Source of the DNA: a virus
Lineage: Duplodnaviria; Heunggongvirae; Uroviricota; Caudoviricetes
Length of the DNA: 21,412 bases
IMG/VR virus record: IMGVR_UViG_2740892117_000010
Coordinates: 1-21,412 of that record
Direction: 5' to 3' (one strand)
Made by a program: the position numbers and the translations under genes. Every line of letters begins with the position of its first letter. Position 1 is the first letter of the stretch. Shown in pieces: positions 2,060-9,360 of this stretch. A model generated the notes under the pieces. It saw only the letters and a program-made list of their open reading frames with translations. It made no database searches and was not told where the DNA came from.

Positions 2060-2542
2060 TCATCGAAGGCATTGCGTCCTGATGTATTCCTGAAGCGTTC
2101 TCAGTGCTGTTTGGTCGCGGATAATTCCGTCCCGGATACCGAGAACGTTTCGTCCAGCAACTGGAGAGAGTTCGACGGTGGCATCATTGCCCATGCCGGA
2201 GGCGCTGGAGGTTTCGGCTGAGGATGGCACAGGGCATTTTCCTTTGACGAACACCCGACCACCATTATCAAGCTTGCGCCGAAGAGCATCATTTTTAGCT
2301 TTCGCATCAGCTAACTCCTTCGTGTATTTAGCATCGAGTGCATCAGCAGCACGCTGGCGCTGCTGCATGTCAGTAATGGTGGCGGTCGCCTGCTTCAGCT
2401 CACTGACTTTTTTATCACGCTGTTCTTTGTAGGCGATGGCGTTATCACGGTAATGATTGACCGCCCACGACAGGCAGACGATGATGCAGATAACCAGAGC
2501 ATAAATAATCGCGGCGACTCTGCTCACTGATCTATCCCCCAA
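2060..2542 (-). CDS. Rz: Rz i-spanin (inner-membrane spanin subunit)
   Basis: Translation [39 protein letters not shown]...[15 protein letters not shown] closely matches lambda Rz from memory; overlaps the endolysin 3' end as in lambda. Confidence 0.92.
2101..2307 (-). CDS. Rz1: Rz1 o-spanin lipoprotein, embedded in the +1 frame of Rz
   Basis: Translation [21 protein letters not shown]...PPAPPAW has a lipobox (VVGC) and proline-rich core like lambda Rz1; entirely inside Rz. Confidence 0.85.
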
Positions 2543-3057
2543 CAGGCTAATGCGCTTTCCTGGTCACGACGAATAACCTGTCCATAGCAGTTATTTGAAC
2601 GTATGCGGCAATCGCGCCCACCATCTTTTATCCACCAGCGAATCGCCTCGCATGCACCTTTACGATCACCAGCATTCAGCCGCTTATAAAACGTCGACGG
2701 AAAACACTTACCGGGGCCAATGTTATAGGGACAAAATGACGCGATACCCGCTTTTTGTGGCTCGGTCAGTGGTACTTTAATATTGCGCTCCACCCATGCC
2801 AGCGCCTTATCACGCTCAATGGCGTTGACCTGGTCGCATTTTTCCTTCGACAGTTTCATACCGGGAAAAACGGGTTTTCCATCCACCATCGTGGCACCCC
2901 GACAGATGGTCCAGATGCCGGAACCATCGCGGTATGCCGTTGTGTGGTTACCTTCTTTTTCATCCAGAAACTGGTCGAGAATATCAGGCGCGGGCGCACC
3001 GACGGCAATCAGTGCCAGAACGGCAGCCGACAGGCCGTATCTGATTTTTGCGTTCAT
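2524..3057 (-). CDS. R: SAR endolysin (phage-21 R / P1 Lyz type lysozyme with N-terminal signal-anchor-release domain)
   Basis: N-terminal weakly hydrophobic Gly/Ala-rich segment ([16 protein letters not shown]) followed by a T4-lysozyme-like catalytic region; positioned between holin and Rz. Confidence 0.88.
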
Positions 3058-3120: not shown

Positions 3121-3471
3121 TTAAGGTTGTGATTCCGGAGGAGTCTTCAGAGAACCAGTAATTCTTCCTGGTAGCTTTCCTTTGTAGGTTATCCAAACAT
3201 TCTGCGCATCTAAAATTACGGAGCGCTTTTCCGGCGACTGCTCGTCCCCTTCACATAACCCGGCAGCAACATCTAGGAAGACCTGTCTGATGCTCATTCT
3301 GGCTGCTGCCTCATAAAACTCCAGCGCGGCACCTTCAACACGGTCCAGCGAGATGTCCAGGTCAAAAATTTCACCGTCAAAGCGTTTTTTGTCCCGTAAC
3401 GCTAAAGTTACCGTAACTTTATTCTCAAAATTGCGGATCCCTTTCACAATCAGTTCATAGTTTTGAGTCAT
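3121..3471 (-). CDS. Hypothetical protein (116 aa) inserted between pinholin and endolysin
   Basis: ATG at 3471 with GGGGAGAG Shine-Dalgarno, starting 4 nt after the holin stop; no recognisable family. Confidence 0.6.
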   Translation of the reverse strand: MTQNYELIVKGIRNFENKVTVTLALRDKKRFDGEIFDLDISLDRVEGAALEFYEAAARMSIRQVFLDVAAGLCEGDEQSPEKRSVILDAQNVWITYKGKLPGRITGSLKTPPESQP

Positions 3472-3475
3472 TGAA

Positions 3476-3691
3476 TTACTCTCCCCGTGCAGCCTTACGC
3501 TTGTCTTCTTTAATCTTGAAATAAAGGTTTGTCAGATACGTCAGCAAGCCAAATACCAGACTACCCAGCACACCTATTGCCGCCCACTGTGAGGGCGTGA
3601 CTTTATCGAGCAACTGTAAAAACCAGTACCCGGCACTACCTGCTGAGGTGCCATAGGCGACACCCGTTGTTAACTTATCCATGGATTTCAT
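3476..3691 (-). CDS. S: Pinholin, phage-21 S type (71-aa antiholin / 68-aa holin dual start)
   Basis: Translation [71 protein letters not shown] is near-identical to S21 as remembered, including the MKSM...MDK dual-start motif. The ORF-track start at 3778 is an upstream extension. Confidence 0.9.
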
Positions 3692-3758
3692 AACCCCACC
3701 TCGCAGATGCGGGTGCTGTGTAATGGAAATAAAAAGGCCACCTGACGTGGCCACCAGA

Positions 3759-4811
3759 TTATTTCCCCACCAGCTCATTTATCTCTTTCACTGTCTGATT
3801 AAACCGCTCTGACTCAAGCTCAACACCTAAGGCCCGACGCCCCAGCGCCATTGCTGCTTTTATTGTGGAACCGGATCCCATAAAAAAATCAGCAACCAGA
3901 TCACCTGGTCGACTACTGGCATTGATTATTTGCCTGAGCATATCCGCCGGTTTCTCACACGGATGTTTCCCCGGGTAGAACTGAACGGGTTTATGCATCC
4001 AGACATCGGTATAAGGCACGGAGACTGATACGGAGAAATAGCGCCGGAGAGATTTAAACTCATCCAGCAATTCAGAATATTTACGATTCAGTGAATCATA
4101 AGATGCCACCAGCTGGTGGTGTGGTTGTTCCAGTTGTTGTTCCTGAAACTTCTCTGCCGCTATACGGGAAAACAGTGCCTGTAACTTCCGATAGTCAGCC
4201 TCATTCGGCAACTGCCACTGACTGGCACCAAACCAGTGGGAAACCATATTTTTCTTACCTGTGGCTTCGGCAATTTGTTTTGCCGTTATACCCAGTTCGG
4301 CACGAGCATCCCTGAAATACGATATCAGCGGTGCCATTATGTGCTGTTTGAGTTCCCTTTCTTTTGCTGCATAGCCGTCACTTTTGCCGCGATATGGCCC
4401 CTGGTAATGTTCAGCAAACAGAACGCGCTCTGTGGCAGGAAAATATGCGCGCAGACTTTCTTTATTACACCCATTCCAACGTCCGGACGGCTTCGCCCAG
4501 ATGATATGGTTAAGCACGTTGAAACGTTCACGCATCATGATCTCAATATCAGATGCCAGGCGATGCCCACAGAACAGGTAAAGGCTTCCGGCAGGTTTTA
4601 ACACCCGCCAGAACTGGGCCAGACAGTGGTCCAGCCACTTAAGGTAATCTTCGTCCCCTTTCCACTGATTGTCCCAGCCGTTGGGTTTCACCTTGAAGTA
4701 CGGCGGATCGGTAACAATCAGGTCAATGGAATCATCAGGCAGGGACTGAATAAAATGCAGGCAATCAGCGTTGATTAAATCAACACTGTTTATTTTTACA
4801 GTATTTTTCAT
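3759..4811 (-). CDS. DNA methyltransferase (N6-adenine/N4-cytosine class, DPPY motif), orphan
   Basis: Contains IVTDPPYF (motif IV) and a C-terminal FxGSGST-like AdoMet motif; no adjacent restriction endonuclease. Confidence 0.85.
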
Positions 4812-4961
4812 GGATCAGTAAGCGTAACTCTGGTAGGCTCACTCTGCTTTTGCGCTAAAGCAGTGGGCCGTGGTTCGCTTGTGACCAGTAAGCATGAGCG
4901 AATGGCTGGCAGGTGCTACCAACACCCACCAGCCGCCCATTTTCACAGCAGGAAACCGCCA

Positions 4962-5189
4962 TTACTGGCAGCGTCTGAATTTATTCCCGTACCCGCCGTT
5001 ATCCTTCGCCAGACCCGCCAGAACTAACTGAGTCAGTATTAACTGGCACCGGGCTTCGCTTACTCCGGTAGTTCTCGTCATCATGCGTGGCGTTACCCAC
5101 TTGTCAGCAGGTAAGAAATGAAGGACTGCGGCGGCGGTTTCTGTCATATCTTGCTGTTTTAGCATGTCTTTTTCCCTTCTGGTTAACAT
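4962..5189 (-). CDS. Small hypothetical protein (75 aa; possible start at 5165), first ORF after the late terminator
   Basis: ORF with GAAGGG upstream of the second ATG; C-terminal half looks like a winged-helix segment; function unknown. Confidence 0.4.
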   Translation of the reverse strand: MLTRREKDMLKQQDMTETAAAVLHFLPADKWVTPRMMTRTTGVSEARCQLILTQLVLAGLAKDNGGYGNKFRRCQ

Positions 5190-5283
5190 GACATACCAAT
5201 AACTCTTGTCTAAAAATCCAGCAAGATAAAAAGTCAGTATTCACGACCACCAGCGTGTTTACTGTACTGCACCAAGTTTACAG

Positions 5284-5311
5284 GTACAAAAAACCCGCTC
5301 AGTGGCGGGTT
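5284..5311 (-). terminator. tR-prime-like intrinsic terminator downstream of the late promoter
   Basis: Minus strand reads AACCCGCCACTGAGCGGGTT followed by TTTTTTGT. Confidence 0.7.
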
Positions 5312-5357
5312 CTTAAATCTTATCAACGGTAGACATACAAAGCCCATCGTTGGGGAA

Positions 5358-5386
5358 ATCTTATCCATATTTTTTGAAAAATGCAA
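5358..5386 (-). promoter_or_regulatory. Late promoter (pR-prime-like), presumed Q-engagement region
   Basis: Minus strand TTGCAT - 17 nt - TAAGAT immediately downstream of the Q-like gene stop and about 45 nt upstream of the tR-prime-like hairpin. Confidence 0.6.
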
Positions 5387-5417
5387 GTATCATGTCGTCA
5401 TCTTCGGCGAAAATCAT

Positions 5418-6212
5418 TTATCTTGTCACTTTTCTCAATTGTGTCTCTGCATATGCTTCTTCCTGCCAGCACTTTGTAACCAGTTTATCAATGACATCTG
5501 CATATCCTTTGTACCACTGATAATCCGTCAGATCCGGTACCAGCTTCTGGACATGATGCCGCGCCAGTGTGGTTGGTAAACGGCTAAACCGGTTTCCATT
5601 GCAACGCCCACAAATCTTATAAACAGGCGTGCCATGAAGCCGGGTCCTTTTTTCATCCAGGACAATACCTTTACCCTTACACCCTCTGCACGCTGTGCTG
5701 ACTTCTCCCTTACCATGACAATGCTGACATAGTTCCTTCACCCACTCCTCCTTGATAACAGATTCACCGCTTCTGGAGTGTTTCACCACTTCGCGCAATA
5801 CATTATGAAATCCAGTACCTGCACAATGCTCACAGCGAGCCTTACTTGCCGCAGACCTGGAATAATCAGCAAAGGCAAAATTCACAAGGTAAGGGATGAT
5901 CTGTAACCGGGTTTCTTCACTCAATTTATTCAATGTCGGGTTATCCAGTGCCATCGCGTAATTGAGCAGACCTTCAATCGCAAACTGAGGATCCTGAACA
6001 CCAACTTTTGCCAGGAATAAGGCAAAACCCAGTGGTGCTTTCGACTGCACCATCCCCTGCGCAGCCATTACATCCGTAATTGTTAAACCACCAGAGCCTG
6101 TCGCCGGTGCGTCATCGCTCAATTTTGGAGATTTCGGGGAGTAATATTTCGGTAAGGCTTCAAGGTTCATGCTCGTTCTCCACTTACGCCAGCACGCCAA
6201 TTGCCAGCGCAC
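5418..6212 (-). CDS. Q: Late-gene antiterminator Q (phage-82 / QuuQ-like family)
   Basis: Position directly upstream of the late promoter and terminator; several CxxC zinc-binding pairs (CEHCAGTG, CQHCHGKG, CRGCKGKG, CGRCNG). Start may be the internal ATG at 6170. Confidence 0.7.
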   Translation of the reverse strand: MRWQLACWRKWRTSMNLEALPKYYSPKSPKLSDDAPATGSGGLTITDVMAAQGMVQSKAPLGFALFLAKVGVQDPQFAIEGLLNYAMALDNPTLNKLSEETRLQIIPYLVNFAFADYSRSAASKARCEHCAGTGFHNVLREVVKHSRSGESVIKEEWVKELCQHCHGKGEVSTACRGCKGKGIVLDEKRTRLHGTPVYKICGRCNGNRFSRLPTTLARHHVQKLVPDLTDYQWYKGYADVIDKLVTKCWQEEAYAETQLRKVTR

Positions 6213-7179
6213 GATCGATAAAACGAAATATCAGCTCCAGCTGGGAGCCATACTTCTCTTCAAATGCCACGGTATCCGCATGCAGCTCGTCGTGATGCTT
6301 TCTGCACAAAGGCAACACAAAAAGGTCATGCGCTTTTGTTCCCATTCCACCCTGACCGTGACCTATCAGGTGGTGGGGATCATCAGCGGGCTTTCCACAA
6401 CATGCACACGGCTGTGTCTTAACCCAGCGCGTGTACTTTTCATTAACCCAGCGGCGACGTTTTGGGCGTAACATAAAAGACTCCGGCGACTCCGGATCCA
6501 CTTTCAGCGCCAGCACCTTTTTCGCCTTATCCTGGATGATGCTGGTGGCAGGAACCGAAGGCACAAGGTCACTTTCCCGGGTAACAGACGGCACAACAGG
6601 CTTCGGTAATCTCAGTGCCTTACGGGCTGCACTTTCCGGTAAGGCATCCGCCAGATCATTACGAATCAGCCACCAGCACAGTTCCGGCATTGTCACAACG
6701 TGACTGTCATCAAAACCGAGATCCCGACGCACAACAGACAACACCCAGCGGGCACAGTTATCCGTTGCCATTGATTCCAGCCGTTCCGTGAACTGATCGC
6801 GCAGCTGGTTATCGCAGTGCCAGCACAGACGGATTGCACCCGGAGCGTGTCGCATTGTGGTCATGTTCTCGCTGTGCCAGTCGGAATGAGGCCACTGGCA
6901 GCCTTTTTCACGAAGTAACCAGCTTTCAAGACATTCCACGCCACCAGCACGACGGATCACTGCCTCATTGCGGAACACGGCCCGAACGGCAGGATCATCC
7001 GCCAGCGGTTGTGATGCCGCCGGAACGGCACCACTGGCGAAAGATGAATAACGCTCCGGCTCAGGCTCCAGCAGGACACGCCCCTGCATAAACAGGGGCA
7101 TCAGCTCTGAACCTGGCCTGAACAATACGATCCCCATACGCGGGGCAATTTCAGGGGTCAGTAGTGCTCTCACGGTCAC
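6184..7179 (-). CDS. DUF968 / YdfU-like protein with C-terminal HNH-like motif
   Basis: C-terminal CACCGKPADDPHHLIGHGQGG...CRKHHDELH resembles an HNH/zinc-finger nuclease motif; lies upstream of Q as ydfU does in the Qin prophage (from memory). Confidence 0.65.
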   Translation of the reverse strand: MTVRALLTPEIAPRMGIVLFRPGSELMPLFMQGRVLLEPEPERYSSFASGAVPAASQPLADDPAVRAVFRNEAVIRRAGGVECLESWLLREKGCQWPHSDWHSENMTTMRHAPGAIRLCWHCDNQLRDQFTERLESMATDNCARWVLSVVRRDLGFDDSHVVTMPELCWWLIRNDLADALPESAARKALRLPKPVVPSVTRESDLVPSVPATSIIQDKAKKVLALKVDPESPESFMLRPKRRRWVNEKYTRWVKTQPCACCGKPADDPHHLIGHGQGGMGTKAHDLFVLPLCRKHHDELHADTVAFEEKYGSQLELIFRFIDRALAIGVLA

Positions 7180-8387: not shown

Positions 8388-8710
8388 ACTTTCAGGCCCC
8401 TCTCATGTAACCAGTGGGCTGCACGCAGCCTGGCGTTTTCCTCACCGGCAAGCAGTGCGCGGATAATCCCGACCGCCTCGCTGTCGTCGTCCTTCACAGC
8501 GGTATGAAGCGTTATCCCCCGTGCCACGCCACGCTTTATCGTGATGACGCCTTTTTTCTCCAGTGCGCGAAGATGCTCCACCGCTGCATTCACCGAACGG
8601 TATCCCAGCATGGTTGCCACCTCCTGATTGGTTGGCGGAAAGCCACGCTCTTTCTGGTAAGAAATCAGCATATCCAGCACCTGCTGCTGGCATTGAGTTA
8701 ACGTCGTCAT
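8384..8710 (-). CDS. LexA N-terminal DNA-binding-domain protein (no peptidase domain)
   Basis: LTQCQQQVLDMLISYQKERGFPPTNQEVATMLGYRSVNAAVEHLRALEKKGVI parallels the LexA N-terminal wHTH as remembered; 108 aa, lacking an S24 domain. Confidence 0.75.
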   Translation of the reverse strand: MTTLTQCQQQVLDMLISYQKERGFPPTNQEVATMLGYRSVNAAVEHLRALEKKGVITIKRGVARGITLHTAVKDDDSEAVGIIRALLAGEENARLRAAHWLHERGLKV

Positions 8711-9360
8711 GCCGCCATCTCCCTGACCAGTTTTTCCGCCTGCTGGCGAACCTGCACCAGAAAGGCTTCACCACATGCCTCAAGTTCATCGCGCCCGATG
8801 TAGCTGATTGCCGGTCCCTTCCAGGTCTTGTCGAAAACAGCAATAGCACCAGCGAAGAAAGCGCCTGTCGGCACCTGCTTCTCATCCTTCGGGATAAACC
8901 AGGCAGGCAGTTCAAAACCAATACGCCCGCGAATAAAAGCAATATGGTCCGCATCTTCCGGCCACCACACTTCGCTGGTGGCAGCTTTGATCAGGAAAAC
9001 ATAGCGCCCGCCCTTATCACGCATGGCACTGGCATGTTTCATGATGTAACGCATGCCGGTGATGTATTGTCCCTCATGCTGACTGGCGCGGCTGTATGGG
9101 GGATTACCAAAGGCAGCACCTTTAAGCTCCGCAAGACGTTCTGACCAGTCATGCGCCAGCGCGTTATCTTCCGCCGTGTAATACGCGGCACATTTGGCGT
9201 TATCACCGTCAGTAAACAGATCCAGAACAAACGGGCCAAACAGGGTGTTAATTCCCCAGAAAATGTTGTCCGGCGTGCGCCACTGATCGCCCACTTCCTT
9301 CAGTTCATGGGCTGGTTTGTTCCGCAGTTCCACCAGCGCCTGGCAATATTTATTACTCAT
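8707..9360 (-). CDS. Phage Dam-like N6-adenine DNA methyltransferase, orphan
   Basis: Contains GNPPYS motif; ATG at 9360 overlaps the upstream stop (TAATG). The ORF-track start at 9393 is a likely extension. Confidence 0.8.
   Translation of the reverse strand: MSNKYCQALVELRNKPAHELKEVGDQWRTPDNIFWGINTLFGPFVLDLFTDGDNAKCAAYYTAEDNALAHDWSERLAELKGAAFGNPPYSRASQHEGQYITGMRYIMKHASAMRDKGGRYVFLIKAATSEVWWPEDADHIAFIRGRIGFELPAWFIPKDEKQVPTGAFFAGAIAVFDKTWKGPAISYIGRDELEACGEAFLVQVRQQAEKLVREMAA

Follow-up and report, generated by a model that had tools for sequence, protein, structure and literature searches.

The Methyltransferase Gene and Its Neighbors

What lies between the antiterminator gene and the lysis genes of this prophage? 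The window (i.e., the whole 21,412-nucleotide stretch of phage DNA analyzed here) holds on its minus strand, at 3759..4811, a 350-codon ORF that opens with ATG and runs to a stop, present with exactly these ends in the ORF list of the window. Its product matches the Pfam family PF01555 (N6_N4_Mtase) over residues 29–341 (E = 2.2e-42; 145.9 bits, with a cut-off of 26.7) and carries, in order, TDPPYF at residues 34–39 (DPPY at 35–38), a central TRD at about 160–237, and FMGSG at 310–314. This succession of DPPY (motif IV), TRD, and FxGxG (motif I) is that of the beta-class enzymes, and both DPPY and FMGSG are invariant in an alignment of methyltransferases (alignment A2). RefSeq records identical DNA, with equal boundaries, as a "DNA-methyltransferase" (WP_000799656.1). 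The solved structures closest in sequence are two unnamed methyltransferase entries, 9c3u and 8urk, followed by the beta-class relatives M.RsrI, M.MboIIA, CcrM, and DpnA; NCBIfam returned sub-threshold matches alone, to YhdJ- and CcrM-type models. Judged from its sequence, the product is a prophage-borne, beta-class N6-adenine methyltransferase of the M.EcoGII/M.EcoGI family.

The gene sits between the antitermination gene Q (5418..6170, minus strand; PF03589, E = 1e-53; RefSeq "antitermination protein" ydfT) and the lysis cassette, whose first gene encodes a holin of the P21 S type (3476..3691, minus strand; PF04971, E = 2e-35; RefSeq essD). Next come a DUF1327/YdfR-family protein (3121–3471; Pfam DUF1327 and RefSeq) and a lysozyme (2524–3057; PF00959). 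The preliminary description, which had placed a 350-aa TDPPYF methyltransferase between Q and the lysis genes, was accurate on both the gene and its position. In an identical RefSeq locus the order runs DUF968, Q, a 204-nt hypothetical ORF, the methyltransferase, EssD, the YdfR-family protein, lysozyme, and an Rz-type protein, with terminase and head genes coming after the Rz-type lysis protein. The holin begins with MKSMDK (3676–3691, minus strand), a dual start (Met1/Met4) like those of lambda S107/S105 and of the P21 S holin/antiholin pairs.

The same "moron" slot after Q is used in phiP27, PPyecE_EH1910, SfV, and Ayreon, the Q genes being of two types, and the methyltransferase lies downstream of Q in all five annotated records inspected (these four and the window prophage). 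In phiP27 the gene is upstream of the tRNAs and stx2e; no tRNA or tmRNA genes, as in Stx phages, occur in the window.

Does the enzyme belong to a restriction-modification system? A Pfam/PHROG scan found no endonuclease beside it, the neighbors being just a 67-aa phrog_331 ORF and the holin. The adjacent cognate endonuclease that marks a Type II restriction-modification system is absent at 3759..4811, in line with what had been claimed from the letters alone, and a location in a lambdoid prophage without an endonuclease is what characterizes the M.EcoGII/M.EcoGI clade. The prophage does encode a second solitary methyltransferase, as the earlier reading also held: a phage Dam-family enzyme at 8707..9360 (minus strand; PF05869, E = 1e-45; phrog_111; RefSeq "phage N-6-adenine-methyltransferase"), which has a 100% identical match in the Stx2c-converting phage Stx2c_JNE090279. 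The DUF968 gene at 6184–7173 (minus strand), with its weak HNH match, was considered as a cognate endonuclease and set aside: it lies beyond Q and adjoins neither methyltransferase, and in PPyecE_EH1910 the slot before Q holds a ydfU gene. The Dam-family protein also matches phrog_33262 ("PAPS reductase") at positions 283–492 of 495, and sequence matches suggest that PAPS-reductase/methyltransferase fusions exist in other phages (e.g., Salmonella phage 118970_sal3).

Distribution and Conservation of the Gene

How widespread is the gene, and is it maintained? About 940 of 5426 complete Escherichia coli genomes match a 1.9-kb query (the gene plus flanks) over at least 80% of its length. These 1.9 kb are 100% identical in E. 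coli chromosomal prophages, including those of ST131 strains, and 99.8% identical in JJ1886. Among phages, proteins annotated as "DNA methylase" in cdtI and Ayreon are each 100% identical to the 350-aa product; identity is 99.7% in mEp460, 98% in SfV (orf48), and 83–85% in Stx2c phages and phiP27. A scan of viral contigs with the single protein recovered just 99–100% identical copies, the diversity coming from an alignment query with one genome per bacterial species. This query gave 80 loci at 64–93% protein identity, in genera that include Escherichia, Salmonella, Klebsiella, Enterobacter, Citrobacter, and Kluyvera, as well as Erwinia, Pantoea, Yersinia, Hafnia, Photorhabdus, and Xenorhabdus. 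Records filed under a Geobacteraceae MAG and under Chryseobacterium and Vagococcus assemblies (L104, L111, and L096) contain an enterobacterial-type methyltransferase together with the leader RNA described below; they probably reflect contamination or mis-binning, not real host range.

Across 50 species, codon positions 1+2 of the methyltransferase keep 86% identity, compared with 47% at position 3, which points to strong purifying selection. This pattern bears on whether the gene simply rides along in a cryptic prophage, decaying or without function, a reading that takes some support from M.EcoGII, whose host element was described as a cryptic prophage with the gene unexpressed (PMC5778455). 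The conservation at positions 1+2 argues against it, as do the intact ORF with all its motifs, the identical protein in the sequenced phages cdtI and Ayreon, and the near-identical one in mEp460 and SfV; we regard a dead gene as very unlikely. The Stx2c-phage allele (L004 in alignment A2) is nearly the same as that of the window over the first ~120 residues, with one difference, and then switches to M.EcoGII-like sequence. Such mosaicism within the gene suggests recombination inside it. The methyltransferase gene itself is already known—widespread, annotated, and of a biochemically characterized family—and its presence here adds nothing new.

Likely Specificity

What sequence, if any, does the enzyme recognize? 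Over its full length the window protein is identical to M.EcoGII at 281 of 349 residues (~81%), with 60 of 78 in the TRD (77%; i.e., 18 of 78 differ) and 18 of 25 and 16 of 22 in the charged linkers; these identities are approximate, as the M.EcoGII sequence is an OCR of Supplementary Table S1 in PMC11551740 and has small errors (RRRA and NHHIW). The match to the reconstructed ancestor Anc291 is 310 of 348 residues (89%; TRD 67 of 78), and to the deeper ancestor Anc284/SUPREM it is 70% overall (TRD 53 of 78). The window protein falls well inside the M.EcoGII clade, at 70–89% identity to the clade members compared.

M.EcoGII, a beta-class enzyme of 349 aa, is encoded in a prophage of E. coli O104:H4. 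It modifies adenine whatever the surrounding DNA sequence, reaching up to 99% of dA in vitro, and accepts single-stranded DNA, DNA:RNA hybrids, and RNA (PMC5778455), the last with ~100-fold less activity than DNA (Table S3 in PMC11551740). The enzyme protects DNA from many restriction enzymes in vitro, is silent in its own lysogen, slows growth or is toxic upon expression, and belongs to a "very large family" found in an apparently well-defined prophage (PMC5778455); all 202 family members sit in phage-derived regions (PMC11551740). M.EcoGI, a paralogue identical to M.EcoGII at 333 of 349 residues, is likewise reported to be non-specific, and M.EcoMV of ST131, 99% identical to M.EcoGI, was untranscribed in the lysogen by RT-PCR (PMC4659465).

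Because proteins 81–89% identical to it have been characterized, we infer that the window enzyme most likely acts on any adenine, with little or no sequence preference. The preliminary description had listed the specificity as unknown, and at the family level this no longer holds. Since no motif is expected, prior methylation of the motif by host enzymes, which it had named as a possible refutation, does not apply.

The alternative, implicit in the preliminary description, is a sequence-specific orphan methyltransferase in which the TRD differences from M.EcoGII confer a discrete recognition motif. Modest TRD changes can shift the specificity of other methyltransferases, 18 of the 78 TRD residues differ here, and the superfamily also has site-specific enzymes, such as M.PflMI. 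However, M.PflMI is just 27% identical to M.EcoGII, and all the ancestors tested from the M.EcoGII lineage back to its common node with M.PflMI methylated both DNA and RNA (PMC11551740). A sequence motif on RNA was absent for M.EcoGII, Anc291, and Anc284/SUPREM, the reconstructed ancestors having been mapped for non-specificity on RNA and measured on DNA for bulk activity alone (PMC11551740), and the window protein lies well within the 70–89% range of this clade. Homologues from O111 that are 92–93% similar to M.EcoGI/GII are also listed as "nonspecific." A discrete motif therefore seems unlikely to us, and any-adenine methylation is the specificity that we carry forward.

A pR'-Like Late Promoter and Terminators around the Gene

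How might a toxic enzyme be kept silent in a lysogen? Directly past the Q stop (5418) lies a pR'-like late promoter on the minus strand (5346..5386, with a GGG reaching to 5343). It consists of TTGCAT at 5386–5381, a 17-nt spacer, TAAGAT at 5363–5358, 6 nt (TTCCCC), and then AACGAT at 5351–5346 and the GGG, which form the AACGATGGG element. We take this element to be a sigma70-dependent pause and Q-loading signal. The pR' of lambda (NC_001416) reads TTGACT, 17 nt, TAAATT, TGACTC, and AACGATGGG; the spacing is the same, and AACGATGGG is identical in the window. The −35 hexamer of this pR'-like promoter is a weak one. We call the promoter from the lambda comparison because a consensus promoter scan of the window left pR' unflagged, finding no more sites than expected by chance. 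The Q protein of the window is of another family than that of lambda (PF03589, with a DnaJ-type zinc-finger match), despite the lambda pR' geometry.

About 40 nt past AACGATGGG, the sequence contains a tR'-like intrinsic terminator (5287..5310, minus strand), ACCCGC-CACUGA-GCGGGU followed by UUUUUUG, and the equivalent site after Q is annotated as a rho-independent terminator in SfV and Ayreon. The predicted terminated pR' transcript is only ~64 nt long. Because the methyltransferase gene lies behind pR' and this terminator, it would be reached only by Q-modified polymerase; transcription from pR' in the lysogen would stop ~64 nt downstream, so that the enzyme is predicted not to be made. This arrangement predicts a gene that lies dormant in the lysogen until Q activates it late in the lytic cycle. 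A position behind pR'/tR' is a way for a toxic enzyme to stay silent, and as read from the sequence it is consistent with the reported lysogen silence and toxicity of the M.EcoGII family. This mode of silencing was missed by the preliminary description, which is right in outline.

Closer to the gene, a terminator-like hairpin at 4951..4972 (minus strand), GCUGCC-AGUAAU-GGCGGU followed by UUCC, holds the stop codon of a small ORF in its loop. Its U-run is weak, and a consensus terminator scan of the window missed it; at the same place other species have a hairpin with a clear U-run (alignment A3). Between the methyltransferase stop and the holin, at 3727..3752 (minus strand), the terminator scan found a hairpin and T-run; SfV and Ayreon have a terminator annotated at this same point.

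A Small ORF Upstream of the Methyltransferase

The small ORF, at 4962..5165 (minus strand), encodes 67 aa (75 aa from an ATG at 5189) and was identified from the ORF list and a PHROG match (phrog_331); it had no match in Pfam. An AlphaFold2 single-sequence model predicts three helices, possibly HTH-like, at low confidence (pLDDT 57), a model too poor for a fold search. Roughly two in three related loci have the ORF ahead of the methyltransferase, but at least 15 loci possess the leader and lack the ORF, which weakens the idea that the methyltransferase depends on it in a Com-like manner.

Across loci the ORF is 63–67 aa long (e.g., L003 4153–4350, L005 2657–2851, and L006 2652–2849), with conserved motifs MLKQQDMTE... 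and ...CQLILTQLVxAGL and at least two divergent allelic forms. In two species (L096 and L099) the leader is kept, but the place of the small ORF, ~200 nt upstream of the methyltransferase start, is taken by an unrelated ORF of 79 aa that is rich in CxxC pairs and zinc-finger-like.

A Conserved, Structured Leader RNA

Does the spacer in front of the methyltransferase have a function of its own? A cassette of the small ORF, a ~150-nt spacer, and the methyltransferase, with the methyltransferase gene last, recurs in SfV, phiP27, PPyecE_EH1910, Ayreon, and the window. The spacer is better conserved than the methyltransferase CDS at 49 of the 50 loci with a long spacer, with medians over the 50 loci of 85% nucleotide identity in the spacer, 74% in the CDS, and 58% in the region of the small ORF. 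A 129-nt leader core reaches a median identity of 88% (50 species); codon positions 1+2 of the methyltransferase stand at 86%, and position 3 at 47%.

Conservation, covariation, and a covariance model together define a structured 5' leader RNA of ~135 nt and five helices at 4812..4951 (minus strand) that begins just past the terminator-like hairpin and ends at the methyltransferase start codon. On the minus strand its helices pair 4935–4939 with 4864–4868 (P0), 4923–4934 with 4904–4915 (P1), 4897–4902 with 4874–4879 (P2), 4857–4863 with 4844–4850 (P3), and 4837–4843 with 4817–4823 (P4). In the leader alignment, 92.5% of the cells in P0–P4 are paired, compared with 33–46% when the partners are slid, and pairs with changes on both sides number 17 versus 6.8 ± 1.8 in shuffles. 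One P2 position appears as C-G (27), A-U (8), U-A (7), and U.G (4), with zero mismatches, and the GGCUGG/CCAGCC of P1 is swapped in other species for GACCGG/CCGGUC, GAUCGG/CCGAUC, and GGCAGAAG/CUUCUGCC. The frequent G.U pairs indicate that the structure is specific to the sense strand.

Within the loci and contigs searched, the leader also accompanies this gene alone. In each of 60 loci, the window included, the covariance model found a single leader, whose end always coincided with the methyltransferase ATG; in the window the match spans 4806–4951 at 157 bits. The core motif TCACAAGCNAAYCNNNGGCCCA has a methyltransferase start 40–120 nt downstream in 118 of 120 viral contigs, and the other two contigs are cut at the end. 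In Photorhabdus and Xenorhabdus the leader is shortened, and P1 and its 5' flank are kept. These comparisons of sequences support an RNA structure that is conserved, covarying, and specific to one strand, and that was seen solely with M.EcoGII-family genes. The sequence shows no Shine-Dalgarno before the methyltransferase ATG. A translational gate of the Mu com-mom type would need a small upstream activator and a leader structure that occludes the start site, but the MFE fold of the leader leaves the start codon unpaired. A GATC (Dam site) lies 2–5 nt before the start codon (4812–4817, minus strand), its A, T, and C invariant and its G nearly so among the 48 species of alignment A4, in which the start context is CUGAUCYAUG.

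Could the conserved stretch be something other than a leader RNA? We reject a small protein (MGGWWVL...): most homologues stop at codon 8 of the sole candidate frame, frame-breaking indels separate close relatives, and the substitutions covary as RNA pairs. A palindrome at the DNA level is unlikely, as many pairs are G.U on one strand only. An RNAalifold consensus, which places AUGGGC with GCUCAU instead of P0/P2, gained little from covariation (−1.04 kcal/mol) and was set aside as the structure, although it might represent an alternative conformer. The anti-sRNAs AgvB and AsxR (Tree et al. 2014) differ in being 51–60 nt long and located 3' of moron genes. Rfam 15 gave no match to 4812–4961 at E ≤ 1 with permissive filters; over 3300–5700 it gave weak matches well below gathering thresholds near tR' (STnc130 and the Leu and Trp leaders), all of them outside the leader RNA. 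A literature search for strings of the leader sequence found nothing.

The leader RNA may be the only new element at this locus, and we offer it as a lead rather than a result. As a hypothesis, post-transcriptional control of a toxic enzyme is the most economical explanation for it. More specifically, our analysis raises the possibility, a rather tentative one, that the leader is an undescribed cis-acting RNA that gates translation or stability of the enzyme in a com-mom-like fashion. Possible inputs would be the small HTH-like protein encoded upstream, the RNA-binding and RNA-methylating enzyme itself, or a metabolite.

Proposed Function and Significance

What would a late, nonspecific methyltransferase do for the phage? 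We think it probable that this is a Q-dependent late adenine methyltransferase without sequence specificity that modifies progeny genomes against restriction. In the lysogen, the pR' transcript would end ~64 nt on, and the methyltransferase would be absent. Upon induction, Q-modified RNA polymerase would read through, and the enzyme would be made alongside the lysis and morphogenesis products. It would then methylate replicated phage DNA ahead of packaging, and progeny would reach new hosts pre-protected from many restriction systems with adenine-containing sites. The preliminary description had arrived at the same anti-restriction reading, and this is the function proposed for the M.EcoGII family in the literature (Murray et al. 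2018, PMC5778455; review PMC12707154). Family, motifs, gene order, and the geometry of promoter and terminators can be read directly from the sequence, as can the lack of an adjacent endonuclease; the nonspecific activity, which is drawn from 81–89% identical proteins, is inferred, as are the lysogen silence and the benefit to this prophage. In the literature on carrier phages we found no report of hypermethylated virion DNA or of better plating on restricting hosts, and heavy m6A could be a liability against methyl-adenine-dependent nucleases.

The main role might also lie elsewhere, in an RNA or single-stranded DNA target or in an action on host DNA that serves takeover or regulation. The enzyme could, for instance, mark DNA during replication or packaging, alter late host or phage transcription, or modify RNA. 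M.EcoGII does act on single-stranded DNA, DNA:RNA hybrids, and RNA (PMC5778455), the family is unusually conserved (64–93% amino acid identity across many Enterobacterales genera), and a dedicated, conserved leader suggests tight control of dosage. On the other hand, the ~100-fold lower activity of M.EcoGII on RNA than on DNA (Table S3 in PMC11551740) speaks against an RNA target, protection from many restriction enzymes has been demonstrated directly in vitro for M.EcoGII (PMC5778455), and no such phenotype was reported in the literature that we found. We judge a different main role to be quite unlikely, somewhat more so than a discrete recognition motif, and retain protection of progeny DNA as the preferred reading.

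For annotation, these findings upgrade the gene from "specificity unknown" to an M.EcoGII-family, probably nonspecific adenine methyltransferase encoded by a Q-dependent late gene. M.EcoGII, from which SUPREM was derived, is a widely used reagent for chromatin mapping of the m6A-footprinting and MadID types. The literature on the family yielded no explanation of how a toxic M.EcoGII-type enzyme is naturally controlled; the conserved leader RNA offers a concrete entry point for testing such control and might also help to express the enzyme in a better regulated way.

Comparison with Known Systems

How does the locus compare with other phage DNA modification systems? Dam enzymes, which act at GATC and are represented in the window by the protein at 8707–9360, share with the enzyme at 3759..4811 the condition of solitary N6-adenine methyltransferases of lambdoid phages. 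They differ in belonging to PF05869/PF02086 and not PF01555, in having another motif order, and in recognizing a defined 4-bp site.

The Mom protein of phage Mu (review PMC12707154) is a toxic, broad-specificity DNA modifier of a temperate phage that is silent in the lysogen and made late, as proposed here for the window enzyme, and mom, like the window gene, follows a small ORF and a structured leader. Mom is not, however, a methyltransferase of the fold of the window enzyme, and whereas Mu Com is a zinc-finger protein overlapping mom, the small ORF of the window lacks a Cys4 motif.

The closest comparisons are with the M.EcoGII lineage itself. Anc291 and Anc284 (SUPREM; Ochiai et al. 2024) are synthetic sequences known from in vitro and heterologous work. 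M.EcoGII (C227-11, EGT69837.1) and the window enzyme are alike in beta-class architecture, in length (349 and 350 aa), and in prophage location; their ~81% identity extends over the helical TRD and the linkers, and ~19% of the residues differ. From this likeness, the window enzyme would be expected to methylate adenine at N6 without sequence specificity, to stay silent in the lysogen, and to be toxic upon expression.
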